A program made the translations under genes and the position numbers. Below the pieces are notes generated by a model. That model was not told the DNA's origin. It did not search any database and saw only the letters and a program-made list of their open reading frames with translations. A DNA stretch of 49,820 nucleotides. Source: a bacterium (GTDB taxonomy: Bacteria > Patescibacteriota > Patescibacteriia > Patescibacteriales > GWC2-42-12). Each line of letters opens with the position of its first letter. The first letter of the stretch is position 1. Below are positions 117 through 37,760 of this stretch, in pieces. The stretch spans positions 1 through 49,820 of the forward strand of contig JAZDFM010000029.1 in assembly GCA_043807825.1 (NCBI GenBank). Direction: 5' to 3'.

Positions 117-950
117 ATGGAAACGCAAACATTGGCAACGGGTTTATTCCAAAAAACCGAAGAATTATTGAGATTGAGAAATTATAGCTCCAAAACTATT
201 AAAAGTTATTTATTTTATATTAAGGATTTTTTACTTTTCGCTAAGCAAAATAAAATTTTAAACAAAGATGAGGCGGTTAAATGTTTTTTACTAAATAGGC
301 AAGACAATGGCAACGCTCCGCAAACCATCAATTTGGCGCTTAACGCGATTAAATTTTTTTATCGCGAAGTCATAAAGTCTCCGGAAAAAATTGATTTAAA
401 ATTCGCGAAAAGAAATAAAAGATTGCCGATTGTTTTATCGCGGGCGGAAATTAAAAAAATTATTTTCAACACCGGCAACAACAAACATCGTCTTATGATT
501 TCTTTGGGGTATGGAGCCGGTTTGCGAGTGAGCGAAGTTTTAAATATAAAAGTAAAGGACCTTAATATCGCGGAATTGACTATTCACATCAAAGAAGCAA
601 AGGGAAAAAAAGATCGTATTACCGTGTTCCCCGAAAAAATGATCGCGGATATTCAAAATCTTATAGCCGGCAAAGAAGGCAACGACTTTGTTTTTGAAAG
701 CAATAGGGGCGGGAAATTAACAACGACTACCGCGCAGAAAGTTTTTGAGAACGCTTTGAAAAAATCCAGTATTCAAAAAGACGCTACTTTTCATTCATTA
801 AGGCACAGTTTCGCCACGCATTTATTGGAAAATGGCGTTGATGTGCGGTATGTGCAGGAGTTATTGGGGCATGCCAATATCAGGACAACGCAGATTTATA
901 CGAAAGTTACCAATCCGATGTTGAAAAACATTAAAAGTCCGTTGGTTTAG
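117..950 (+). CDS. tyrosine site-specific recombinase, XerC/XerD-like integrase family
   Basis: 277-aa ORF. The C-terminal HSLRHSFATHLLENGVDVRYVQELLGHANIRTTQIYTKV matches the R-H-R-Y catalytic region of tyrosine recombinases. N-terminal SAM-like core-binding region (KTIKSYLFYIKDF). Confidence 0.85.
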   Translation: METQTLATGLFQKTEELLRLRNYSSKTIKSYLFYIKDFLLFAKQNKILNKDEAVKCFLLNRQDNGNAPQTINLALNAIKFFYREVIKSPEKIDLKFAKRNKRLPIVLSRAEIKKIIFNTGNNKHRLMISLGYGAGLRVSEVLNIKVKDLNIAELTIHIKEAKGKKDRITVFPEKMIADIQNLIAGKEGNDFVFESNRGGKLTTTTAQKVFENALKKSSIQKDATFHSLRHSFATHLLENGVDVRYVQELLGHANIRTTQIYTKVTNPMLKNIKSPLV

Positions 951-5205: not shown

Positions 5206-6909
5206 ATGCCAAACAGCCAATCAATCAAAGATTTGTTCAGCGATGCGTCCGGGCAATCGCCAAATGATGAAAGCGCTTCGGCCAAATTCGCGGTCAAAGA
5301 AAAAAAATTGAAAATCAAAGAGCTTGAACGGCTCACCAAGCAGGCGGCGGATAATTCCGGATTGCCGTATGTTGATTTGGCCGGTTTTCCCATCAGCCCG
5401 GAAGCTTTGGTTTTGATTGACGAAGCCGAAGCCGCGGCGATTAAAACTCTGTGTTTTTTTTACGACGGCAAAAATATCCGTTTGGGAAGTTTGAATCCCG
5501 GCGAAGAGGATGTGAAAAAAATGTCTGATAAGTTGGCGGAAAAATATTTCGCGGATGTAAAAATTTATCTGATTACGGAGAATAGTTTTAATTACGGCAT
5601 GGAAATGTACAAAACAATACCCAAAGTCAGGGAAGTTGTGAGAGGGGTGAAAATCACCGAAGAAGAATTGAACAAATACGGGGAAAAATTTTCCAGCTTC
5701 AAAGATTTTCAGGAAGAAATAGTCAAAGCGCAGGTTACTGAAATAGTCTCCATGATTATGGCCGCGGCCGTAAAATCAAATTCATCGGACATACACATTG
5801 AAGCCGAAGAAAAATCAATAAAAGTGAGGTTCAGAATTGACGGAGTTTTGCATGATGTCGCGATAATAGATAAGTCGTCATGGGAAAAAATAATTTCGCG
5901 CATGAAGCTTTTAGCCGCCGTGAAAATAAATGTTACGGACAAGCCGCAAGACGGCAGGCTGTCTATTTATCTGAAAGACGAACGGGTTGATATTCGCTCT
6001 TCTTTTTTGCCGACCAATTTTGGCGAAAGCGTCGTGATGAGGCTTTTGCGGTCAAACGCCGTCGGATTGGAATTCAATGATTTAGGCATAAGGGGCAGGG
6101 CTTTTGAACAACTGAAACGGGAAGTGGAACGCCCGAACGGAATGATTATAACTACAGGTCCGACAGGCTCGGGGAAAACCACCACTCTTTACGCGATTTT
6201 AAGAAAATTGAACAATCCGGAAACAAAAATAATAACCATTGAAGATCCGATTGAATACCAGCTGGCGGGAGTCAACCAATCCCAAACAAGCAAAAATTAC
6301 ACTTTTGCCCAGGGTTTGCGGTCAATCGTGAGGCAAGATCCGGATATTGTCATGGTTGGAGAAATCCGCGACCTTGAAACATCGGAAATAGCGATTCAAG
6401 CGGCTTTGACCGGGCATTTGGTTTTATCAACCATCCATACCAATGACGCGTCCGGCACGGTGCCGAGATTTTTATCCATGGGCGCCAAGCCGTATTTATT
6501 GGCTCCGGCTTTGAACGCCATGATCGGGCAGAGGTTAGTCAGAAAAATCTGCGCGAAATGCAAGCGGGAATCCAAGCTTGACGATGAAACTTTAAAAAGG
6601 GCCAAAGATCTGCTGAACGGGCTTTTGGAAGAAGACAAGAAAAAAATTGATTTTGGCAATTTGAAATTTTATGCCGGCGGCGGCTGTGAAGCTTGCCAAG
6701 GCATCGGCTATAAAGGCCGCGTGGGAATTTATGAAGTTTTGACCATGAATCAGGAAATTGAAAAATTGATTTTAGGCGGGCAGGCGAGCGAATACGATAT
6801 GAGCGACAACGCTAAGAAAAACGGCATGATAACCATGGCGCAGGACGGCTTGCTGAAAGCGCTTGACGGCATAACCAGCGTTGAAGAAGTGTTCAGAGTG
6901 TCGGAGTAA
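5206..6909 (+). CDS. pilB: type II/IV secretion ATPase, PilB/GspE family
   Basis: N-terminal GSPII_E_N-like domain, Walker A GPTGSGKTTT, Asp box/Walker B DPDIVMVGEIRD, His box, and the tetracysteine motif CAKC...CEAC typical of PilB/GspE. Confidence 0.9.
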   Translation: MPNSQSIKDLFSDASGQSPNDESASAKFAVKEKKLKIKELERLTKQAADNSGLPYVDLAGFPISPEALVLIDEAEAAAIKTLCFFYDGKNIRLGSLNPGEEDVKKMSDKLAEKYFADVKIYLITENSFNYGMEMYKTIPKVREVVRGVKITEEELNKYGEKFSSFKDFQEEIVKAQVTEIVSMIMAAAVKSNSSDIHIEAEEKSIKVRFRIDGVLHDVAIIDKSSWEKIISRMKLLAAVKINVTDKPQDGRLSIYLKDERVDIRSSFLPTNFGESVVMRLLRSNAVGLEFNDLGIRGRAFEQLKREVERPNGMIITTGPTGSGKTTTLYAILRKLNNPETKIITIEDPIEYQLAGVNQSQTSKNYTFAQGLRSIVRQDPDIVMVGEIRDLETSEIAIQAALTGHLVLSTIHTNDASGTVPRFLSMGAKPYLLAPALNAMIGQRLVRKICAKCKRESKLDDETLKRAKDLLNGLLEEDKKKIDFGNLKFYAGGGCEACQGIGYKGRVGIYEVLTMNQEIEKLILGGQASEYDMSDNAKKNGMITMAQDGLLKALDGITSVEEVFRVSE

Positions 6910-10886: not shown

Positions 10887-11810
10887 ATGAAAAAATTGAT
10901 ATTGCCAAGTTTGTTGATTGCGTTATTGCTCGGAGGATGTTCTCTTAAGTTTCCAGAAGGCAAGACCGCTAAAAAAATTCTCGGACCCGAACAAGCCAAA
11001 GCCACGGCGGAAAAATTCATCAATGAAAATTTATTGCCGGAAAGCACTAAAGCGACTGTCAAAAATGTAACCGACGAGGGCGATGTTTATAACATAAATC
11101 TTGAAGTTGAAGGCAAAGATTACACTTCTTACATGACCAAAGACGGGGCCAAATTTTTTCAATCCGGAATTGACATGGAAAAAATGGCTCAAGAAAACAA
11201 AACGCAGAATCAGGATGCCGCGGTTCAAACTGAAACTGTTGTTCCAAAAAGCGACAAGCCGAAAGTTGAATTGTTCATTATGACCTATTGCCCTTACGGA
11301 TTGCAGGCGGAAAAAGGAATTTTGCCGGCTTTCAAAGCTTTGGGGGATAAAATAGACGCCAGCATAAAATTTGTTCATTATTTCATGCATGGCGACAAGG
11401 AAGAGCAGGAAACATACAATCAAATCTGCGTCAGAGAAGAACAGCCGGCGAAATTCAACGCTTATCTTGATTGTTTCACGATAGAAGGCGATAGCGCGAA
11501 ATGCCTTGATAAAGCCGGAATTGATAAAGCGAAATTAAATAGCTGCGTTAAATCTAAGTCTAAAGACATGTATAAAGCCGATTCGGAGTTAAGCCAAAAA
11601 TACGGAGTGGAAGGAAGCCCGACTTTGGTTATCAATGGAGTTAAATCCGATGCCGGCCGCGACGCGGCCAGCTATTTGGCCGGAATTTGCGCGGCTTTCA
11701 ACAACGCGCCTTCACAATGCTCTGAAAAACTTTCTTCATCGTCTCCGTCCGCGGGTTTCGGAGCCGGAAGCGATAATTCGGGATCGGAAAACGCCGGATG
11801 CGGGCAATAA
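10887..11810 (+). CDS. lipoprotein with thioredoxin-like/DsbA-like domain
   Basis: Lipobox LLLGGC. The CPYG redox motif in VELFIMTYCPYG and GSPTLVINGV are typical of the DsbA/thioredoxin fold. Confidence 0.65.
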   Translation: MKKLILPSLLIALLLGGCSLKFPEGKTAKKILGPEQAKATAEKFINENLLPESTKATVKNVTDEGDVYNINLEVEGKDYTSYMTKDGAKFFQSGIDMEKMAQENKTQNQDAAVQTETVVPKSDKPKVELFIMTYCPYGLQAEKGILPAFKALGDKIDASIKFVHYFMHGDKEEQETYNQICVREEQPAKFNAYLDCFTIEGDSAKCLDKAGIDKAKLNSCVKSKSKDMYKADSELSQKYGVEGSPTLVINGVKSDAGRDAASYLAGICAAFNNAPSQCSEKLSSSSPSAGFGAGSDNSGSENAGCGQ

Positions 11811-11830
11811 ATAAACATTTGATAAAAAAT

Positions 11831-12304
11831 ATGAAAGAGCAAATAGATTTTTCGGAAGTTAAAAAAGAATTGTTAAAACAAGTATTAACAAAAAAAGAAC
11901 GAATAAGCTCTTTTCCTTCGGAAGTTAAAAAAAAATTATTAAGACAAGTATTAACAAAATTAGATGAAGTTAACAATCATTGGCAAAATATCAATGATAA
12001 TTCCGGTATTATTGGTGGAAACGCGCAAAGTTGCGGAATGCATGAATGGGAGGTAAGAAATTTGGAAAAAGAAGTTGCCGGAGAATTAGCTGCTATTGAT
12101 TTTAATAGAGAAGATTTAACAGAGGAAGATTCAAAAATTATAAATAATTATTTATCAATGGGCGATATTGGAATTTTGCAAGAAATTATTGCCAAGAAAG
12201 CAGATATTGAATACAGAGATCCGTTTGATGATAACCCTACGCATGCATCAGGGTCGGCTGAACAAATATTGAAAGAAATAGAAAAAGAAAAAAAATTAAA
12301 TTAA
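11831..12304 (+). CDS. hypothetical protein with internal 22-aa repeat
   Basis: ATG at 11831 follows the upstream stop. A 66-nt in-frame direct repeat (ttcggaagttaaaaaa...caagtattaacaaaa at 11851 and 11917) encodes SEVKK.LL.QVLTK twice. No family recognised. Confidence 0.5.
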   Translation: MKEQIDFSEVKKELLKQVLTKKERISSFPSEVKKKLLRQVLTKLDEVNNHWQNINDNSGIIGGNAQSCGMHEWEVRNLEKEVAGELAAIDFNREDLTEEDSKIINNYLSMGDIGILQEIIAKKADIEYRDPFDDNPTHASGSAEQILKEIEKEKKLN

Positions 12305-30409: not shown

Positions 30410-30452
30410 GACCCCTTTAATAAAGGGGTCGCCCGTTAGGGCGGGGGATTTT
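30410..30452. repeat. double-hairpin palindromic element (CCCCTTTAATAAAGGGG type), probable terminator for porB
   Basis: gacccctttaataaaggggtc is a perfect palindrome, followed by the cgcccgttagggcg hairpin and ggggatttt. A related copy sits inside porB at 31085-31118. Confidence 0.8.
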
Positions 30453-30476: not shown

Positions 30477-31403
30477 TTATAATCCGTATTTTTTTATATT
30501 TTCATCGGCTAATTTTTGGATGTAAGCTATTTGCGATTTGCCGCGTTCATCTTTGAATAAATGCTTAAAACGCCCTTGCGGTTTTAAATAATCTTCAACC
30601 GGCTGGCGTTTTTCCGGCAGTTTGATCACTTCTCCAAGCTGTCCGTTAACATATTCCACAGCCGGATAGATTCCGGTTAAAACCGCCAATTTGGCGATGT
30701 TTAATGTTTGATTTGGTTCAATTTTCCATCCGGGAACGCATGGCGACAAAATTTGGACATAAGACGGGCCTTGGGTTTCGGCGGCTTTTTTTATTTTTTT
30801 GATTATATCCAGCGGATAAGCGGCTGTGGTTTGCGCCGCGTATTTAAGGCCATGCGCCAAAGCTATGGCTATCATGTCTTTTTTCATGAAATGAGATCCT
30901 GCCGGCGTGGTTGTGGTATTGGCCGCCCAGGGAGTCGCCGCGCTTGCCTGCGCCCCGGTATTCATATAGCCTTCATTGTCATAGCAGATATAAATGATAT
31001 TTTCGCCCCTTTCCCACATTCCGCTGATAAGACCCAAGCCAATGTCAAACGAGCCTCCGTCTCCGCCTTGCGCGACAACTTTAATACCCCCTTTAATAAA
31101 GGGGGGCAGGGGGGATTTATTTTTTTCTTTGTGATCCAGAGCCGCTCTGATTCCCGAAGCTACGGCGGCCGCGTTTTCAAACAAAGAATGGATCCATGGC
31201 ATGCCCCAGCTTGATTCGGGATAAGGAGTGGTGACAACTTCCAAGCATCCGGTGGCATTGGCGATGATCGTATTCGGTCCGAGCGTGTCCGCTACTAATC
31301 GCGCCGCGATTATTTGAGCGCATCCGGCGCAACCGCGATGGCCCGGGGAGAGGAGCGAGGGCTTGGTGTTTGCGTTTTTTTTGGCTGTTATTGTATTGTT
31401 CAT
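30477..31403 (-). CDS. porB: pyruvate/2-oxoacid:ferredoxin oxidoreductase beta subunit (TPP-binding)
   Basis: GHRGCAGCAQ, GCLEV..TPYP, GGDGG..DIG and YDNE.YMNTG motifs of POR/OFOR beta subunits. Confidence 0.9.
   Translation of the reverse strand: MNNTITAKKNANTKPSLLSPGHRGCAGCAQIIAARLVADTLGPNTIIANATGCLEVVTTPYPESSWGMPWIHSLFENAAAVASGIRAALDHKEKNKSPLPPFIKGGIKVVAQGGDGGSFDIGLGLISGMWERGENIIYICYDNEGYMNTGAQASAATPWAANTTTTPAGSHFMKKDMIAIALAHGLKYAAQTTAAYPLDIIKKIKKAAETQGPSYVQILSPCVPGWKIEPNQTLNIAKLAVLTGIYPAVEYVNGQLGEVIKLPEKRQPVEDYLKPQGRFKHLFKDERGKSQIAYIQKLADENIKKYGL
31085..31118. repeat. palindromic element inserted in frame within porB
   Basis: ccccctttaataaaggggg followed by caggggggattt. It encodes KSPLPPFIKGG just before the conserved VVAQGGDGG block. 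Confidence 0.75.
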
Positions 31404-31427
31404 ATTTTATTAGAAATTAGAAATTTT

Positions 31428-31646
31428 TTAATTCGTTTCCATTACTTGCTTCTTAATGCCTCCGAGTCTGATTTTATCCGTTTGGCCGATAAATTTGGTC
31501 GCGTTCAGTATTTCAATTAAAACCGGTTTTTTGTTTTTTGACAAGTGAATTATGAAGTTGCCGAATTCCAAACAATGGTCAATCGGATCTTTTGACAATT
31601 CCCATGATATTAAGTTTGCATCAAGATCGTATCGCATATTACGCAT
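31428..31646 (-). CDS. DUF2283-like small protein (putative antitoxin partner)
   Basis: MRYDLDANLISWELS...VLIEILNATKF resembles the YD.e.D.ly / GiEil pattern of DUF2283. It overlaps the upstream DUF4258-like gene by 8 nt. Confidence 0.55.
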   Translation of the reverse strand: MRNMRYDLDANLISWELSKDPIDHCLEFGNFIIHLSKNKKPVLIEILNATKFIGQTDKIRLGGIKKQVMETN

Positions 31647-31860
31647 TTTTTATCGGAAAAAATGTGATTATTTTAAAAATATCCCCGTCTTTTTTATAAA
31701 TAACTTTTATATTTTCTTTTTGAGCGGCAAAAAGCCCGTCTTTTTTTCCTGTTTTATCGGGCGCGCCTATCGCGTCTTCAATTTGTTCGCGCGTAAAAAA
31801 TATTTTATGCTTATTTAAGATATCAAATTTTGATTCCGCGTATTTAGTAAAGTAAAGCAT
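31639..31860 (-). CDS. DUF4258-like small protein (putative toxin)
   Basis: 73 aa. The FTKYAESKFDILNKHKIFFTREQIEDAI layout resembles DUF4258, which commonly pairs with DUF2283. Confidence 0.5.
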   Translation of the reverse strand: MLYFTKYAESKFDILNKHKIFFTREQIEDAIGAPDKTGKKDGLFAAQKENIKVIYKKDGDIFKIITFFPIKNA

Positions 31861-31862
31861 AT

Positions 31863-32102
31863 TTATGAGTTATAAGTATGATCATTTTTTCGCTCTATGG
31901 TTAAAATTGATATTTTTTCATCGCCGAGGCGATAAATAATTCTGATTTTTCCTTTACGGACGCGGTAAATATCCTGTCGGCCTTTTAGTTTTTTTATATC
32001 AAGATTATCAAAATCACGGCAATTGATTTTAATTAGAATCGTTTTAATAATTTCTTTTTCTTCGGCCGCCATTTTTTTCAGCGTTTTGGCGATTTTATCC
32101 AT
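31863..32102 (-). CDS. RelE/ParE-family type II toxin
   Basis: 79 aa. KKLKGRQDIYRVRKGKIRIIYRL....ISILTIERKNDHTY matches the RelE/ParE core pattern. It starts 3 nt after the Phd-like gene. Confidence 0.7.
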   Translation of the reverse strand: MDKIAKTLKKMAAEEKEIIKTILIKINCRDFDNLDIKKLKGRQDIYRVRKGKIRIIYRLGDEKISILTIERKNDHTYNS

Positions 32103-32105
32103 AGG

Positions 32106-32318
32106 TTATAAACGCGATAATATTTCTTTAATATCAACGCCGCCTTTTTTTATTTTGGTGAAGTCAATAATTTCCTCCCATTGTTCTTCCTGAAGAGGAG
32201 ATATGCGAAACAAAGGCTTTGATTGCTTAAAAACTATAAATGATTCGCCATTGGCGATGCGTTTAGCGTAATCAATCATATTTTCCCTTAAAGTTTTTAA
32301 ACCGACGGTATTTTCCAT
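32106..32318 (-). CDS. Phd/YefM-family antitoxin
   Basis: 70 aa. GLKTLRENMIDYAKRIANGESFIVFKQSKPLFRI is the Phd/YefM N-terminal fold pattern. Confidence 0.7.
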   Translation of the reverse strand: MENTVGLKTLRENMIDYAKRIANGESFIVFKQSKPLFRISPLQEEQWEEIIDFTKIKKGGVDIKEILSRL

Positions 32319-32324
32319 AATTTT

Positions 32325-32377
32325 AAAGTTAATTTTTAAATTAACTTTAGTTTAACAAAAAATTAACTTATTGTCAA
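32325..32377 (-). promoter_or_regulatory. promoter (TTGACA-17-TAAACT) with 24-bp palindromic operator for the Phd/RelE pair
   Basis: On the minus strand, ttgaca lies at 32372-32377 and taaact at 32349-32354. The palindrome aaagttaatttttaaattaacttt (32325-32348, 11-bp arms) sits between the -10 box and the ATG. An extra half-site aattaactt is at 32361-32369. Confidence 0.65.
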
Positions 32378-32390
32378 TTGAAAAATATTT

Positions 32391-33473
32391 TTAAAAGTTG
32401 CACCATTTGCTGTTAGCTTCCCACGGGCCCCAACCCGAACCGCCGGCTAACCTTTTGGCGTTGCTGACGCTTATAGCCGGATTGGAGGCGGCGGCCACGC
32501 ATTTATTGTATAAAACAACATCGGTTACAGAGCAACTCGGACTGCTATTGACCCATGCTTTGTTGCCGAAAGCGTCAGGGCAATTCAGTTTGTTGTTGTT
32601 TTCATCTATCAAATAATTCGCCGACAAATTAAATTGGAACAAACCCCAAACAGCGTAATAATCGCCATTGCCGCATTTGGTTAAAGGATTTTTTGCATCG
32701 GCTTTGCCGGAACTTTCCGCCATACAGATGGCTGACGCTTCTCCGGCCTTATCGCCGAAAGCGGACATTTTGAATATGGAGCATTCGCCGGTTTCCGTCG
32801 GCTTGCATTGTCTGGAAAATTCTTCCGTGTTTTTCGGTTCCGGAATTTGACCGGCTATCTGAATATTGATCGGATTGAAATTAACTAAAGCAGGATTAAC
32901 TTGATAAAGAATAGTATAAGAGCATAAAGCTATGATTAGTCCGGTTAGGCTCGCGCCGATCCACGCTTTGGCTTCGCCGATCATGGTGGCGCTGCCGCCG
33001 GCGATTATCCAGAGAACGCCACCGACCATCAAAACCACGGCCGCTAAAATGCCGACTATGCCGATGGCGTATTTGTAAATTCCGGCGATGTATTCGCCGA
33101 TCCATGGGTAACTGCAGACTTTTTTGCCGTTTTGCTCCACGCATTTTATGGCGCTGCCTTTGGTTAAAATAAGGCCGGGTATGTCTATTTGAAATTGAAA
33201 ATCAGGAATTTTTATTTCCGGCATAGTGTCGTTGACTTCGTGCGGTATAGTGGTTTCCACAACGCAAGAATAAGTTGCTTTTCCGCCGATAGTGCTTCCG
33301 CCGGTTTGAATGCATAAATAGCCGCTGTCGCATGTTTTGTCGCCAAGGCCGGAGCAAGGTTTTCCTATTATCATTTCCGCCGAAACTGAAGGTGAAAATG
33401 AAAAAAATAATAACAGCAAGCTGAAAAATTGCGCGACAATAACTATGTATGAAATTTTATTTTTTGGATCCAT
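32391..33473 (-). CDS. exported protein: N-terminal Cys-containing region, TrbC/VirB2-like pilin hairpin, C-terminal lysozyme-like domain
   Basis: Signal peptide ending SVSA. Two-TM core IYKYAIGIVGILAAVVLMVGGVLWIIAGG...GEAKAWIGASLTGLIIALCSY fits the type IV secretion pilin pattern. The C-terminal ICMAESSG...VWGLFQFN...GWGPWEANSKWC with 8 Cys resembles the lysozyme/SLT fold. Confidence 0.7.
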   Translation of the reverse strand: MDPKNKISYIVIVAQFFSLLLLFFSFSPSVSAEMIIGKPCSGLGDKTCDSGYLCIQTGGSTIGGKATYSCVVETTIPHEVNDTMPEIKIPDFQFQIDIPGLILTKGSAIKCVEQNGKKVCSYPWIGEYIAGIYKYAIGIVGILAAVVLMVGGVLWIIAGGSATMIGEAKAWIGASLTGLIIALCSYTILYQVNPALVNFNPINIQIAGQIPEPKNTEEFSRQCKPTETGECSIFKMSAFGDKAGEASAICMAESSGKADAKNPLTKCGNGDYYAVWGLFQFNLSANYLIDENNNKLNCPDAFGNKAWVNSSPSCSVTDVVLYNKCVAAASNPAISVSNAKRLAGGSGWGPWEANSKWCNF

Positions 33474-33476
33474 AAA

Positions 33477-34328
33477 TTAGTTGCACATTGCGCCTGATTG
33501 TGTTGATTCGCAATCTCCGTTGCAACATTCATAATTGGCGAATAGCGGGTCAGAGCATAAAAAATTGGTATTTTTGCATGGTTCGCATTTTTTATTTTTG
33601 CAATATCCTTTTCCTCCTTTTGGGGTATTGCAAATTTCATGGTCGTTTTCGCTATTGCAATCCGATGGCAATTCTTCATTGCAAACATATACTCCGTTAA
33701 CGCTTTCGCAATTTCCTCCGCAACATTCTGGATTTGATGAGCATTTGAAACCTTGTTTCAAGCATTGTTGGCACTCTCCATTTTGGCAATATCCGCTTTG
33801 GTTATTAACGACGCAATAATTTCCGTCTTGGCTGCAATCATAATAAATATTCGCGCTGTTTGTTTTTTTATCTGCAACTTGTTGAATCGCCGTTGTTTTT
33901 AAATCTACCAGTGCCGGATTGACCGTGGCTAAAATCACATAAGAGCATAAAGCGATAAGCAAACCGGCGAACGAAGCGCCTATCCACGCCTTGGCTTCGC
34001 CGATGGCGGCGGAATTTCCTCCGGCTATAATCCACATTACGCCGCCGACCATCAAAACCACGGCCGCCAGAATGCCGACTATGCCGATGGCGTATTTGTA
34101 AATAGCTCTGATGTAGTTTGCTATGTTGCCTGTGCTTTTGTCGCTTGAATCAAATTTATAATCTCCGACCTGAACTTGCGGAATGAATTCAATGCCATCA
34201 TCAGCGGCTTGTCCGGCGTTCGGCGCGAAAGTTAAAAATAATAAGCAAGAAAGCTGAAAAATAAAAATCGCCAGGAAAAGAATTGTTAAAATTTTCGGAA
34301 AATGTTTTAGCATAAATTTTTGGATCAT
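33477..34328 (-). CDS. exported protein: TrbC/VirB2-like pilin hairpin with C-terminal tandem 10-Cys knottin-like modules
   Basis: Signal peptide ending AGQA. Same two-TM core as the downstream paralog (55 of 66 residues identical). The C-terminal 119 aa hold 20 Cys in two modules with conserved spacing. Confidence 0.7.
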   Translation of the reverse strand: MIQKFMLKHFPKILTILFLAIFIFQLSCLLFLTFAPNAGQAADDGIEFIPQVQVGDYKFDSSDKSTGNIANYIRAIYKYAIGIVGILAAVVLMVGGVMWIIAGGNSAAIGEAKAWIGASFAGLLIALCSYVILATVNPALVDLKTTAIQQVADKKTNSANIYYDCSQDGNYCVVNNQSGYCQNGECQQCLKQGFKCSSNPECCGGNCESVNGVYVCNEELPSDCNSENDHEICNTPKGGKGYCKNKKCEPCKNTNFLCSDPLFANYECCNGDCESTQSGAMCN

Positions 34329-34359
34329 AGATCAAGCCCGGGATGACTGGAGCAGGGGA

Positions 34360-34632
34360 TTATAAATGCCGGTAGATATCGTGATTGCCAATTGAGATAA
34401 AAAGGATGTCGCCGTTTTTCTGTCGTTCAAAAATAATTCTATAGTTGGCGTTGATGGAAATTGACCAAATACATTTAAATTCACCGCGCAGTTCATGCAG
34501 GCGCAGGGAAGGATGAAGCGGGTTTGCTTTAAAAATTTTTTCTTTTTTTATAGCAATGTCTAAAAGTTCTTTAGGCAATTTTTTTAAATTTTTAATAAAA
34601 CTTGTTGAATATTCAATCTTTTTAACAATCAT
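34360..34632 (-). CDS. RelE/ParE-family type II toxin (mRNA interferase-like)
   Basis: 90 aa. NPLHPSLRLHELRGEFKCIWSISINANYRIIFER...ILFISIGNHDIY matches the RelE/YafQ-type pattern. It overlaps the antitoxin gene by 4 nt. Confidence 0.75.
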   Translation of the reverse strand: MIVKKIEYSTSFIKNLKKLPKELLDIAIKKEKIFKANPLHPSLRLHELRGEFKCIWSISINANYRIIFERQKNGDILFISIGNHDIYRHL

Positions 34633-34859
34633 AAAAGATAGGCCAAGGAGTCGGCTTTTATTGTTTTTCCGTTTTTATATTCTTCCCGAGACTCTATGAT
34701 AGCTGCCATTAATTCTTTGTCAGATATAGTATTATTATTGTCCGCTTCAAAAAGATATTTAAAATATTCGCTGATTGAAGCAAAGCCGCTGTGTTTTATA
34801 TGGTTTTTTAATTTTTTTACCATGTTTTCCGGCAGAGAAACGCTTATGACTTGTCTCAT
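34629..34859 (-). CDS. ribbon-helix-helix antitoxin
   Basis: 76 aa. The N-terminal VISVSLPENMVKKLKNHIK...SISEYFKYLF strand-helix-helix layout fits an RHH fold. It lies upstream of and is translationally coupled to the RelE-like gene. Confidence 0.65.
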   Translation of the reverse strand: MRQVISVSLPENMVKKLKNHIKHSGFASISEYFKYLFEADNNNTISDKELMAAIIESREEYKNGKTIKADSLAYLL

Positions 34860-34888
34860 AAATATATTGGTTAATTATTATGTTATAA

Positions 34889-34917
34889 TTGTATTACAAT
34901 CGTAATACAATGTCAAG
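34889..34917 (-). promoter_or_regulatory. promoter (TTGACA-17-TACAAT) with palindromic operator for the RHH/RelE pair
   Basis: On the minus strand, ttgaca lies at 34912-34917 and tacaat at 34889-34894. The inverted repeat gtattac/gtaatac (34892-34898 and 34903-34909) overlaps the -10 hexamer and the spacer. Confidence 0.7.
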
Positions 34918-34945
34918 ATTCAATCTATTCTTGCCGCTGGCTTCT

Positions 34946-34970
34946 GGATTCCCGCCTGCCAGGAATGACG
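34946..34970 (+). repeat. REP-like palindromic unit, GGATTCC...GGAATGACG variant
   Basis: ggattcccgcctgccaggaatgacg has the same frame (GATTxC loop GxAATGAC) as the GAGATTGC family and sits immediately beside a family member. Confidence 0.6.
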
Positions 34971-34977
34971 AAACCGT

Positions 34978-35019
34978 GAGATTGCTTCGTCGGACGAGTA
35001 CGGCCTCCTCGCAATGACA
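34978..35019 (+). repeat. REP-like unit, GAGATTGC...GCAATGACA family
   Basis: gagattgcttcgtcggacgagtacggcctcctcgcaatgaca ends 2 nt from the porA stop codon. Confidence 0.8.
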
Positions 35020-35021
35020 AA

Positions 35022-36200
35022 CTATTTGCCTACAAACTGTGCTCTATCGTTTTTTTTATTTGCTTTTTTAATTATTTTTTTAATCATCTCAACCGTAATA
35101 TCCCTGCCACCAAGGCCGACAATGAAACTGGAGACATTGGCATTTGTCGCGCCTTGAACAACGGCTTTGATGTCGGAAGCCAGCGGTCCGATTTGCCCCA
35201 GCGAAATTGATTTGTCTATGACAGCGATGTTTTTCGCGCGTTTTATTATTTTTAAAATTTGTTCTGATGGAAAAGGTCGGAAGCATTTAATTTTCAAGAT
35301 GCCGATGTCCGAGCCGGCGGCGGCGTGTTTTATGGTTCCGCAAACCGATCCCATGGCGATGACTATGGTGTCAGGGTTTTTAGGGCCTATATATTCCATT
35401 AAACCATTTTCTATTCTTAGTTTTAATTGGTTTAATTTTGAATTTTGAATTTTGAATTTTGAATTGAATGCCGTAAACTCTTTGTTGATGGCGTTAAGGC
35501 TATTCTCCAAATCTTCGTGCAGTTCTTGCCGGATTTCCATATAATGGGCCGGAGTAGCCAAAGCTCCCAAGGTGGCGGGGTTGGCCGGATCCAAATATTG
35601 GCCGGGTTCGGGATTGTAATCAGGAAGATATTTTTTAATCTGTTCGGCTTCGGGTATGATAACCGGCTCGTAAGTGTGCGTCATGATGAATCCGTCAACA
35701 TTGACCATAACCGGAATTTTTAATTTTTCGGCGATTTTGAAAGCCATAATATGTTGGTTGACGGCTTCCTGATGGTTTTCCGCGAATAGCAAAATCCATC
35801 CCGCGTCCCTGATCGCCATCACATCCTGCTGATCGTTCCAGATATTTATTGGCGCTGATACGGCTCTGTTGGCGCATGTCATGACAATCGGCAATCTCAT
35901 TCCCGCGATATTGTAAATCACTTCGGCCATAAGCAAAAGCCCTTGCGAGCTTGTGGCGCTGTAAGCGCGCGCTCCGGCGGCGCTGGCTCCGGCCACGATA
36001 GAAGCGGCCGCGAATTCGCTCTCGGCCCTCACATATTCATAATCAGCCTGTCCGTCGGCTTTGAATTTTGCCAGGTCTTCAACAATATGGGTTTGAGGAG
36101 TGATTGGGTAGGCGGAAATCACGGCGGGGCGGATATTTTTAACTGTTAGGGCGATAGCGCGAGAGCCTTCAAGTATTTGTTGTTTATTTTTATTATTCAT
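35022..36200 (-). CDS. porA: pyruvate/2-oxoacid:ferredoxin oxidoreductase alpha subunit
   Basis: GSRAIALTVKN...AYPITPQT...SE.AA....GAS.AG.R..TATSSQG pattern. The ATG at 36200 (MNNKNKQQILEG) is preferred. The ORF-track extension to 36446 runs through a REP element and overlaps porD. Confidence 0.9.
   Translation of the reverse strand: MNNKNKQQILEGSRAIALTVKNIRPAVISAYPITPQTHIVEDLAKFKADGQADYEYVRAESEFAAASIVAGASAAGARAYSATSSQGLLLMAEVIYNIAGMRLPIVMTCANRAVSAPINIWNDQQDVMAIRDAGWILLFAENHQEAVNQHIMAFKIAEKLKIPVMVNVDGFIMTHTYEPVIIPEAEQIKKYLPDYNPEPGQYLDPANPATLGALATPAHYMEIRQELHEDLENSLNAINKEFTAFNSKFKIQNSKLNQLKLRIENGLMEYIGPKNPDTIVIAMGSVCGTIKHAAAGSDIGILKIKCFRPFPSEQILKIIKRAKNIAVIDKSISLGQIGPLASDIKAVVQGATNANVSSFIVGLGGRDITVEMIKKIIKKANKKNDRAQFVGK
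35434..35461. repeat. heptanucleotide repeat (aattttg x4 plus a partial copy) inside porA
   Basis: Four exact tandem copies on the plus strand encode FNSKFKIQNSKL in an apparently expanded inter-domain linker. Confidence 0.85.
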
Positions 36201-36214
36201 ATAAAATTGTTCGC

Positions 36215-36269
36215 GAGATTGCTTCGTCGTCCCCCACCAAAATTTGGTGGGGGACTTCTCGCAATGACA
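36215..36269 (+). repeat. REP-like unit, GAGATTGC...GCAATGACA family, with nested perfect hairpin
   Basis: gagattgcttcgtcgt + cccccaccaaaatttggtggggg + acttctcgcaatgaca, in the 76-nt porD-porA spacer. Confidence 0.85.
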
Positions 36270-36276
36270 TGAGGAA

Positions 36277-36525
36277 TTATTTTTCTTCAGGTTCCATTTC
36301 AATGGCTTTAAACGGGCATTCAGCGGCGCATAATCCGCAGCCTTTGCAATATGACAGATCGCCATCATAATATTTTTCGCCGGTTTGATGAATCGCGTTT
36401 TCAGGGCAGATTCTTTGGCAAATTCCGCAAGCCGAACATTTGTCATGCAAAAATTTCGGTTTAATTGATCTCCATGAACCTGTTTTATTTATTATTGAGG
36501 TAGATGGTTTAACGGCAATTTTCAT
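36277..36525 (-). CDS. porD: oxidoreductase delta subunit, 2x[4Fe-4S] ferredoxin
   Basis: CSACGICQRICP and CKGCGLCAAECP cluster motifs, 82 aa. Confidence 0.9.
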   Translation of the reverse strand: MKIAVKPSTSIINKTGSWRSIKPKFLHDKCSACGICQRICPENAIHQTGEKYYDGDLSYCKGCGLCAAECPFKAIEMEPEEK

Positions 36526-36534
36526 AAATAAAAT

Positions 36535-37074
36535 TTAATTTTGATACGCCATTTCTATGGCTTTGATATTTTTATCAATCAAATCTTGATTTCCGGAAAA
36601 TTTTTCTTCAATGGCCTGTTTAAGAGATTCAAGGCTGACTATGCCGGTTATTTTCGCGAAAGCTCCCAAAATAACGGTGTTAACTATATTTTTCCCGATT
36701 ATTTCCAAAGCTATTTTGGACGCGTCAATGATATGAATATTTGATGCCGGCAATTTGATTTTCAATTCCCGTTTGTCTTTGGCCGTATTGATGATAGCGA
36801 TGGTTTTTTTACCCGCGCCCTTGGCCACGTCAATGCTTTCAAGCAAACTGGCGTCCTGAATAATCAAAATATCCGGATTTTTAATTTGTTCTCTGGTTAT
36901 TATCGGATTATCGTCCACGCGCGCGAACGATTCCACGGGCGCGCCAGTCCTTTCCACGCCGAAAGATGGAAAAGCTTGCGCCTGCCGGCCGCTTTTAAAC
37001 GCGGCTATGGCTATCAATTCGGCGGCGGTTACAACTCCTTGGCCTCCTCGGCCGTGAATTCTTATTTGTATCAT
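36535..37074 (-). CDS. porG: oxidoreductase gamma subunit
   Basis: IRIHGRGGQGVVTAAELIA...FPSFG.ERTGAP is the POR/OFOR gamma signature. Confidence 0.9.
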   Translation of the reverse strand: MIQIRIHGRGGQGVVTAAELIAIAAFKSGRQAQAFPSFGVERTGAPVESFARVDDNPIITREQIKNPDILIIQDASLLESIDVAKGAGKKTIAIINTAKDKRELKIKLPASNIHIIDASKIALEIIGKNIVNTVILGAFAKITGIVSLESLKQAIEEKFSGNQDLIDKNIKAIEMAYQN

Positions 37075-37082
37075 AAAAATTT

Positions 37083-37760
37083 TTATTTTTTCAAATCCTC
37101 AATTATTTTAACAAACACATCATACGGTATGTCTCCCGATATTTTATAGCCGTTGATAAAGTAAGTCGGCGTGCCAGCGTTTCCGAATGATTGCCCGTCA
37201 GACAAGTCTTTTTGAATTTGCGGAAGATATTTTTTTTGATCAAGGCAATTTTTAAATTTCGCGGCATCGGCGCCGATTTGTCCGGCTAAAGACATAAGAT
37301 GATCGGCGGTGTTCACGCCTTGGTTTTGGAACAGCTTGTCATGCATTTGCCAAAATAACCCTTGTTCGCCGGCGCATCGCCCGGCTAACGCCAAATCGGT
37401 TGAATATTCTTGCATTATCGGGTAATCGCGCCAAATGAATTGGACTTCGTTTTTGTATTTTAAGCTTATTTCCCTGGAAGTTTTAAATGATTGCGCGCAC
37501 GCGGAGCACGCGAAATCTCCGAATTCAACTATTGTTATTTTCGCGTTTTCGGAGCCTGTCCAATAATGTTCTCCTTTGGAAGCATTATATGTTTGTCCGC
37601 TTAATTTTGTTTCGGATTCTTTCAGCTTAATTTGGGCGTTTTTTATTTCACTTATGAAATAAAAAATACTGGCGGAGACAAAAAATAAAATTATGGCGGA
37701 AAAAATAATCGCCAAAACGCCTTTCCATGTTTTAATCCAAGGTTTTTTTTCGTTTTCCAT
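37083..37760 (-). CDS. membrane-anchored DsbA-family thiol:disulfide oxidoreductase
   Basis: N-terminal TM anchor. VEFGDFACSACAQ carries a CxxC motif, and GTPTYFING is a cis-Pro-type motif of the DsbA fold. Confidence 0.8.
   Translation of the reverse strand: MENEKKPWIKTWKGVLAIIFSAIILFFVSASIFYFISEIKNAQIKLKESETKLSGQTYNASKGEHYWTGSENAKITIVEFGDFACSACAQSFKTSREISLKYKNEVQFIWRDYPIMQEYSTDLALAGRCAGEQGLFWQMHDKLFQNQGVNTADHLMSLAGQIGADAAKFKNCLDQKKYLPQIQKDLSDGQSFGNAGTPTYFINGYKISGDIPYDVFVKIIEDLKK

Follow-up and report, generated by a model that had tools for sequence, protein, structure and literature searches.

What is the role of a membrane hairpin that is encoded twice in succession, each time with a different cysteine-rich domain attached, in an operon for core metabolism? 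The question is raised by two adjacent minus-strand genes, here called B and A, in a 49,820-nucleotide stretch of a patescibacterial contig (JAZDFM010000029.1, assembly GCA_043807825.1); this whole stretch is referred to as the window. We propose, with a probability of roughly 0.6, that A and B are a pair of modular VirB2-like pilins, in which a conserved hairpin is the carrier of exchangeable outer domains (heads) displayed outside the cell. The carrier may assemble as a filament or as a membrane oligomer, or may serve merely as an anchor.

Two genes with one block in common

33477..34328, minus strand: gene B, proposed modular VirB2-like pilin of 283 aa (signal peptide, hairpin, Cys-rich head)
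34206..34328, minus strand: signal peptide of B (aa 1-41), a long Sec-type leader ending in AGQA↓A (the arrow marks cleavage)
33906..34133, minus strand: hairpin core of B (aa 66-141), consisting of helix, AGGN loop, helix and a final NPALV motif
33480..33836, minus strand: head of B (aa 165-283), two tandem 10-Cys modules
32391..33473, minus strand: gene A, proposed modular VirB2-like pilin of 360 aa (signal peptide, 6-Cys N-region, hairpin, lysozyme-like head)
33108..33377, minus strand: A-type N-terminal extracytoplasmic region (aa 33-122) with 6 Cys, which marks the second-slot paralog in relatives
32883..33107, minus strand: hairpin core of A (aa 123-197), with AlphaFold2 (AF2) helices at 123-157 and 162-192 and a predicted local distance difference test score (pLDDT) of 84-89
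32394..32813, minus strand: head of A (aa 221-360), predicted SLT_3 / GH23-like lysozyme-like domain with 8 conserved Cys

The two open reading frames (ORFs) lie exactly where the initial annotation had placed them, separated by 3 nt (AAA), and, as it had stated, they are unlike outside a common core: BLASTP aligns one common block, in which 62/90 residues are identical (E 1e-35), and all remaining high-scoring segment pairs are insignificant, with E > 20. Our recount of the 66-residue core reproduced the 55 positions (83%) said to be the same in A and B, and no further ORF in the window contains this core. The DNA of the core is 75% identical (149/198), falling to 58% at third codon positions, which shows that the likeness of the two proteins is maintained by selection and does not result from recent gene conversion. 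A recent tandem duplication or gene conversion was rejected on the basis of this low third-position identity and of the presence of both gene types in 41 genomes. Thus, the earlier term 'tandem paralogs' is right in that the genes are adjacent and related, but local tandem duplication does not apply, the pair being an old syntenic module. Homologue searches found 438 sequences for A and 372 for B; a search of NCBIfam found nothing, nor did tRNA and Rfam scans of the window.

That both ORFs are functional as genes is borne out by purifying selection. In comparison with the closest syntenic relative (L086), the ratio of nonsynonymous to synonymous substitution rates (dN/dS) is 0.155 for the whole of B and 0.156 for the whole of A, dropping to 0.041 in the hairpin of B and 0.061 in that of A, which makes the hairpin the most constrained part. 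The heads have values of 0.10-0.14, and positive selection on them between close relatives was rejected accordingly.

The hairpin belongs to a pilin family of Patescibacteria

In both proteins, hydropathy and sequence indicate a Sec-type leader followed by two hydrophobic helices with a short loop between them, and in the AF2 models, too, the core has two long helices (66-101 and 106-136 in B), connected by a loop of 4 residues. The core had been likened to the pilins of type IV secretion systems (T4SSs), and both proteins do match the T4SS_pilin family PF18895 over nearly its full length, A with E 5.9e-5 and 23.5 bits (model positions 4-68 of 71) and B with E 1.7e-4 and 22.1 bits (positions 2-68), the gathering cut-off being 26.6 bits. 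Among 128 relatives scanned, 112 match PF18895 at E <= 1e-3, and the cores of four diverse relatives, scored alone, reach 26.8-42.7 bits, at or above the cut-off. Furthermore, many relatives bear the name 'pilin' at NCBI. On these sequence grounds we assign A and B to PF18895, the VirB2-like pilins of Patescibacteria, and regard this assignment as solid at the family level. With 360 and 283 aa, A and B are large compared to the characterised small stand-alone PF18895 pilins (about 125-185 aa), which points to a variant architecture and does not in itself exclude them from the sequence family.

The family is large, an exhaustive search with a 91-aa core returning 14,859 representative clusters at E <= 1e-3, and the hairpin is strongly conserved: 11 residues are invariant across 150 sequences, and conservation across loci of the Genome Taxonomy Database (GTDB) is about equal to that of the subunits of 2-oxoacid:ferredoxin oxidoreductase (POR), whose genes surround the pair. 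A type IV pilin identity was rejected, as the leader has 32 aa in A and 41 aa in B, each time with an AxA site, and there is neither a class III leader nor a G↓F/M-x-x-x-E motif.

The A and B hairpins were also compared within and across genomes. The identity between A and B hairpins has a median of 67.5% within a genome and 53.3% across genomes, being higher within the genome in 39 of 41 cases, and in genomes like that of the window the A and B hairpins are closer to each other than the A orthologs are among themselves, suggesting co-evolution or old gene conversion. Single chains with 2-4 tandem hairpins, connected by linkers of about 35 aa, were also observed in the representative library (P0240, P0241, P0244, P0246 and others); in P0240, four hairpins are followed by a classical SLT domain. 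Taken together, the constraint on the hairpin, the A-B co-evolution and the multi-hairpin chains point to contacts between hairpins, and so to something more than plain anchors.

Both ends are predicted to face the outside

Both proteins had been described as carrying signal peptides, and we can read the elements of one in each sequence: a positively charged n-region, then some 20 hydrophobic residues and after these a site of the AxA type, with predicted cleavage at VSA↓E in A and GQA↓A in B. Among B-type orthologs the leader has a median identity of 56%, with P36 and A41 invariant. By helix count, the short loop would be inside and both the head and the N-region outside, whether the leader is cleaved or not.

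The cysteines agree with this topology. A has 6 Cys ahead of the hairpin and 8 in its C-terminal domain, and the 119 C-terminal residues of B contain the 20 Cys reported for them. The number of Cys is even in 234 of 239 heads (binomial p about 1e-62), and Cys makes up 8% of head residues versus 1.1% in cytoplasmic proteins of the window, indicating disulfide-bonded domains outside the cytoplasm. In addition, the gene block that contains the pair is headed by a candidate disulfide catalyst for the heads:

37083..37760, minus strand: DsbA-like thioredoxin-fold oxidoreductase (Pfam Thioredoxin_4 4e-28, DSBA 2e-15)

The same gene adjoins pilin-core genes in 49 of 80 GTDB species loci, 7 of which lack POR genes. 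Even-Cys statistics, Cys enrichment and the position of dsbA thus uphold the prediction that both variable ends are extracellular. At 10887-12304 on the plus strand, the gene of a second, weakly DsbA/thioredoxin-like protein of 307 aa is followed by an overlapping 168-aa ORF with no family match, and these may be another disulfide-handling pair.

One hairpin, many heads

The head of A matches SLT_3 (PF18896) at E 0.0016 with 19.3 bits (cut-off 27). Among the relatives there are 23 SLT_3 matches at E <= 1e-3, the best at 2.3e-8, and a Saccharibacteria homologue (L064:9818-10747) exceeds the cut-off with 32.3 bits. E253, S254, G277, L278, F279, Q280 and all 8 Cys show little or no variation in alignments of 48 and 16 sequences, and when the head is aligned with true SLT tails by hhalign these motifs pair, weakly, with ES...GLMQ (E 7e-4, probability 27%). 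The AF2 model of the head has a pLDDT mostly above 90, and a search of its profile against PDB sequences found nothing. For head A we propose a GH23-like activity, as a muramidase or as a lytic transglycosylase. Of what had been said about the ends of A, the N-terminal Cys region stands, with its 6 Cys, and the C-terminal lysozyme-like domain relies on the sub-threshold SLT_3 match together with the invariant catalytic motifs. The N-region is modelled by AF2 with low to medium confidence, and its profile co-occurs with SLT_3, SLT, 3D or unrecognised heads.

The head of B is built from two modules that are 36% identical to each other and matched in Cys spacing (C-x6-C-x8-C-x4-C-x2-C-x6-C-x5-CC-x3-C-x8-C). 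The last six Cys of each repeat (C-x6-C-x5(9)-CC-x3-C-x8-C) have a spacing that we take to be consistent with the inhibitor-cystine-knot (ICK) pattern. No Pfam, PDB-sequence or Foldseek match to the B head was found, and hence none that backs an ICK or knottin fold; AF2 models beta-hairpins with low confidence. A homologue search with this head alone gave no candidate sharing enough words. The B-type tails differ so widely among orthologs that they cannot be aligned, their median identity being 20% versus 79% for the hairpin.

That a common hairpin carries exchangeable heads, which had been proposed from two proteins, is supported by the survey of relatives. All 241 collected members of the sub-family have a C-terminal extension of at least 24 aa (median 162 aa), and the heads fall into about 63 BLAST-distinct clusters. 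A Pfam scan of 128 relatives recognised seven kinds of head domain:

SLT_3: 23/128
SLT: 20/128
3D: 18/128
Amidase_2: 1/128
VanY / M15: 1/128
Glucosaminidase: 1/128
NlpC/P60: 1/128

All seven act on peptidoglycan; the other heads are Cys-rich and contain no known domain. The two gene positions differ in what they carry. The first slot, directly after porA, encodes a hairpin with a Cys-rich head and never an enzyme domain (55 cases). In the second pilin gene, which lies before or after porB, the A-type N-region and the hairpin are constant and the head is SLT_3, SLT, 3D or unrecognised. This pattern shows that heads have been exchanged at an orthologous locus. The display or delivery of effectors that had been suggested, and a role in host attack, remain inferences.

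An old module in a dsbA-por operon

The pair is enclosed by POR genes:

30477..37074, minus strand: POR operon enclosing the pair (Pfam; 2-oxoacid:ferredoxin oxidoreductase)
36535-37074, minus strand: porG (Pfam)
about 36280-36525, minus strand: porD (tblastn)
35022-36200, minus strand: porA (Pfam)
30477-31403, minus strand: porB (Pfam)
34888..34916, minus strand: sigma-70-like promoter (TTGACA-17-TACAAT, 11/12), a consensus match only, upstream of RHH/RelE, B and A
30410..30430, minus strand: best terminator-like hairpin (9-bp stem and T run), just past porB and convergent with rpoC

On the minus strand the order is dsbA-like, porG, porD, porA, RHH/RelE, B, A, a ParE-like pair, a DUF2283-like pair and porB. 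The B+A pair is probably co-transcribed with the dsbA-por operon, and the terminator-like hairpin likely closes the transcription unit. The rpoBC genes and mur genes lie near the por operon. A degraded porD was considered and rejected, the gene being intact and the 82-aa N-terminal extension of the porA ORF an out-of-frame overlap.

The order dsbA-porG-porD-porA-[B-type]-[A-type]-porB recurs in Falkowbacteria-like genomes, with the second-slot head exchanged, and is retained in contigs whose A proteins share just 43-81% identity with that of the window. On this ground we rejected a recent arrival of the pair between porA and porB, by insertion or as part of a mobile island; only the RHH/RelE and ParE-like cassettes vary there. 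The context survey covered 80 GTDB species loci, many of the genomes being labelled Falkowbacteria. Pilin-core genes adjoin POR genes at 56 of the 80 loci (42 of them with dsbA too), dsbA only at 7, and neither at 17. The B+A pair is thus an old, vertically inherited module.

Several small genes accompany the pair. An RHH antitoxin and RelE/YafQ-type toxin pair (34360-34859, minus strand) lies between porA and B and is found in few relatives (L006, L057, L086), suggesting a variable insertion. Downstream of A (31863-32318, minus strand), a 70-aa and a 79-aa (ParE-like) protein are 100% identical to those encoded at L086:6705-7160; with a synonymous divergence (dS) of about 0-0.02 between the two, and 0.2-0.7 in flanking genes, this pair looks like a recently exchanged toxin-antitoxin cassette in an otherwise diverged operon. 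Between the pilin genes and porB (31428-31860, minus strand) there are a 73-aa gene and a 72-aa gene, the latter with a weak DUF2283 match. This pair occurs at the same place in 19 of 43 GTDB loci having both porA and porB, with 52-85% identity, and is unusually stable for toxin-antitoxin-like genes.

In a Saccharibacteria/Doudnabacteria run (L064:6804-12177, L072, L044), glutamyl-tRNA synthetase (GluRS), an M23 peptidase, a hairpin-SLT_3 protein, a gene of ~150 aa and a second hairpin protein follow one another, a setting unlike both the por and the VirB4 contexts. Patescibacteria-type dsbA-por-pilin blocks were also seen in records of metagenome-assembled genomes titled 'uncultured Gammaproteobacteria' or 'Bdellovibrionales' (L009, L015, L016, L022, L023 and others); the taxon given in these titles is probably wrong. 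The left edge of the window (117-950, plus strand), about 30 kb from the pair, contains a gene of the tyrosine recombinase / phage-integrase family, and no sign of a relation between it and the pilin pair was seen.

How the pair may work

In the mechanism that we propose, each precursor would enter the membrane through Sec and then lose its long AxA-type signal peptide. The two helices would form the hairpin, with the AGG(S/N) loop and an invariant Lys in the cytoplasm and both ends outside, a topology read from the sequence with which the Cys statistics agree. The DsbA-like enzyme of the same gene block would oxidise the cysteines, 6+8 in A and 20 in B. The hairpins may then associate laterally, either as membrane oligomers or as a VirB2-type filament built by a VirB4-type machine encoded elsewhere, so that the heads would be located on the cell surface. 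There, head A would cut glycan strands, of the cell's own wall as a passage for the apparatus or of the host wall, and head B would be a variable, disulfide-knotted binding module. In the course of evolution, heads have been replaced on a hairpin that remained the same.

A bolder version of the same idea seems doubtful to us as a whole. It would make VirB2-like pilins of Patescibacteria general-purpose carriers and, in Falkowbacteria-like lineages, the pair part of a T4SS-dependent filament or a membrane-proximal hairpin oligomer with a wall-cutting A and a variable, cystine-knotted adhesin B, that is, an enzyme-armed conjugative-type pilus that binds and breaches the host wall, is transcribed with POR and its own disulfide catalyst, and is retargeted by head swaps.

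A possible link to type IV secretion

Some relatives connect the modular hairpins to a secretion machine. In L022, a VirB4 gene is followed at a distance of 3.5 kb by a hairpin-SLT_3 fusion, and in L024, too, such a fusion lies just downstream of VirB4. The L022 cluster (L022:4534-10750) comprises VirB4, a 157-aa ORF, an Rce1-like (CPBP) intramembrane protease, a 785-aa protein and the hairpin-SLT_3 gene. A role of the protease in pilin processing is conceivable. The 785-aa protein, which has no Pfam match, is conserved upstream of hairpin-SLT_3 genes in L023, L024, L030, L041 and L078. In a survey of Patescibacteria pilins, the Falkowbacteria assemblies seen in Table S1 are scored VirB4-positive (PMC12102498), which makes it plausible that a VirB4-type machine is encoded elsewhere in the genome studied here. 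In the same survey only 1135 of 1948 assemblies have a pilin near virB4 (PMC12102498).

Several observations weigh against the proposal of a modular pilin pair. There is no VirB4, VirD4 or VirB6 gene within the window, nor within 10 kb in the syntenic relatives L001, L003 and L005. The earlier statement that the window lacks a T4SS ATPase or channel thus holds for these three genes; the window does contain a full-length PilB/GspE-type ATPase at 5206-6909 on the plus strand (Pfam T2SSE E 1e-119), its sole secretion-type ATPase. This ATPase gene lies by itself between the genes of an M18 aminopeptidase and a translin-family protein, and no further pilus genes surround it. A and B score 3-4 bits under the PF18895 cut-off, and A is under the SLT_3 cut-off as well. 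The TrbC/VirB2 family PF04956 is not matched at E <= 10 by A, B or the cores of the four relatives, the core profile matched none of the solved pilins among PDB sequences, and Foldseek with the full-length AF2 models of A and B recovered no pilin from the PDB. Nor did it recover a lysozyme fold for head A, the full-length model giving only helical-hairpin matches. More generally, Foldseek of both models against the PDB, and of A also against BFVD, returned nothing at E <= 0.001, generic helical hairpins prevailing, and phmmer of A and B against PDB sequences gave no relevant match. Consequently, of the initial label 'TrbC/VirB2-type pilin' we retain PF18895 membership and drop a direct sequence or fold tie to classical TrbC/VirB2; the only tie to PF04956 is indirect, in that two Southlakia PF18895 pilins match that family too. 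We know of no VirB2-type pilus with a head of 120-170 aa on every subunit. The characterised pilins of Patescibacteria are bare and have about 125-185 aa (Southlakia, PMC10633639). Finally, the location in a housekeeping operon would suit a housekeeping wall enzyme equally well.

Alternative explanations

This last point leads to the strongest competitor, in which the proteins are housekeeping wall factors, the hairpin a mere two-helix anchor, A an autolysin or space-making muramidase of the cell itself and B an unrelated surface protein, with no role in a T4SS or pilus. The vertical inheritance of the pair within a por operon near rpoBC and mur genes speaks for it, as do the lack of T4SS genes close by, the peptidoglycan-directed activity of all recognised heads and the fact that no sub-family member seen has a head shorter than 24 aa (median 162). 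However, a plain anchor would not be expected to have a dN/dS of 0.04-0.06 and 11 residues invariant across 150 sequences. Furthermore, the essential T4SS pilins of Southlakia come from the same family, hairpin-SLT_3 fusions lie beside VirB4 in L022 and L024, and multi-hairpin chains and A-B hairpin co-evolution suggest hairpin-hairpin contacts. We therefore consider this explanation unlikely, although it must be taken seriously.

The proteins might instead be pro-protein carriers, from which the heads are cut near the invariant NPxLV junction and freed as a soluble lysozyme and a Cys-rich toxin- or bacteriocin-like peptide. Conotoxins and defensins have a comparable layout, with a conserved precursor and a variable mature peptide, and the conserved leader and hairpin of B-type proteins with their unalignable Cys-rich tails would fit it. 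The low-confidence, poorly conserved linker after the hairpin would also fit, as would the Rce1-like intramembrane protease gene between VirB4 and the hairpin-SLT_3 gene in L022. Against it, neither a cleavage motif nor a dedicated protease was found in the window, no immunity-like gene lies downstream, where the small genes resemble cytoplasmic toxin-antitoxin proteins, and the tail dN/dS of 0.10-0.14 gives no sign of an arms race between close relatives, so that we regard it as improbable.

Least credible, in our view, is that the pair are polymorphic interbacterial effectors, with the hairpin as a T4SS-recognised trafficking domain and the heads as toxins injected into host or competitor cells: bacteria-killing T4SSs do deliver peptidoglycan-hydrolase effectors, and the combination of a constant N-terminal part with diverse wall-degrading domains at the C-terminus recalls polymorphic toxins, but a Sec signal peptide and two membrane helices suit the producer's own membrane and not a soluble substrate, immunity genes are lacking, and the synteny is that of a stable chromosomal locus and not of variable islands.

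Comparison with known systems

The modular pilins proposed here can be set beside four kinds of protein. In the classical TrbC/VirB2/TraA pilins of F and T pili, a long signal peptide precedes two hydrophobic helices; the loop between these is short and basic and faces the cytoplasm or lumen, and both termini lie outside. The layout of A and B resembles this class (PF04956), but no sequence or Foldseek similarity to it was detected. To our knowledge, classical pilins have no C-terminal domain; in some, the two ends are joined into a ring, and this would not be possible with a large head.

Much closer are the VirB2-like PF18895 pilins, reported across Patescibacteria and often in tandem (441 arrays; PMC12102498). 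In Southlakia epibionticum the PF18895 array SEML1_0014-0019 is essential (PMC10633639), and two of its pilins also match TrbC/VirB2 PF04956 (supplementary table, PMC10633639). Filament polymerisation has not been demonstrated for any Patescibacteria pilin (review PMC12857230). A and B agree with these pilins in family, Sec-type leader, short-loop hairpin, adjacency of paralogs and restriction to Patescibacteria. The described pilins, however, are encoded in virB4 clusters as bare proteins of about 125-185 aa, and the identity between paralogs is 25% (at most 54%), whereas A and B have 283 and 360 aa, disulfide-rich heads and hairpins that are 83% identical, and lie in a por operon without a T4SS nearby.

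With the VirB1-type hydrolases of monoderm T4SSs (PrgK, TcpG, CwlT, TrsG; PMC12102498), A shares the principle of a membrane-tethered extracytoplasmic peptidoglycan glycosidase or peptidase, and the kinds of head on the hairpin (SLT, glucosaminidase, NlpC/P60, M15, amidase) are partly the same as theirs. Those enzymes have a simple N-terminal anchor and are separate from the pilin, whereas A is fused to a VirB2-like hairpin; in Southlakia, too, lysozyme and M15 peptidase are separate genes. In their modularity A and B are most like type IV pilins such as PilB of Streptococcus sanguinis (PMC8179133), in which a small conserved pilin module is grafted with an adhesin, lectin or peptidase in many architectures. 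Type IV pilins are an unrelated class: their class III leader is short and is removed by prepilin peptidase, and they have just one helix, at the N-terminus, in contrast to the long AxA-type Sec leaders and the helical hairpin of A and B.

The PF18895 family, its tandem arrays and its essentiality in Southlakia are therefore already known. The pilins of the literature are small and bare, with VirB1-type hydrolases as separate proteins (PMC12102498, PMC12857230, PMC10633639), and 'modular pilins' have been described for type IV pilins only, the unrelated class (PMC8179133). In the full-text literature searched we found no description of the fused-head sub-family, of head swapping at a fixed locus or of a B+A pair in a dsbA-por operon, although Pfam architecture pages and the NCBI name 'pilin' reflect the family implicitly.

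Significance

These findings bear on the question of how ultra-small episymbionts attach to a host and pass through its wall, a process for which VirB2-like pilins are among the few components proven essential, in Southlakia. The fusion of the hairpin, in a large sub-family, to enzymes that cleave peptidoglycan or to variable modules rich in disulfides leads to the testable idea that pilins present enzymes and binders at the cell surface, which would extend the principle of the 'modular pilin' from type IV pili to T4SS-type pilins. Furthermore, the placement in a dsbA-por operon suggests an unexpected coupling of a surface apparatus with core metabolism, and will serve as an easy genomic marker for the module.

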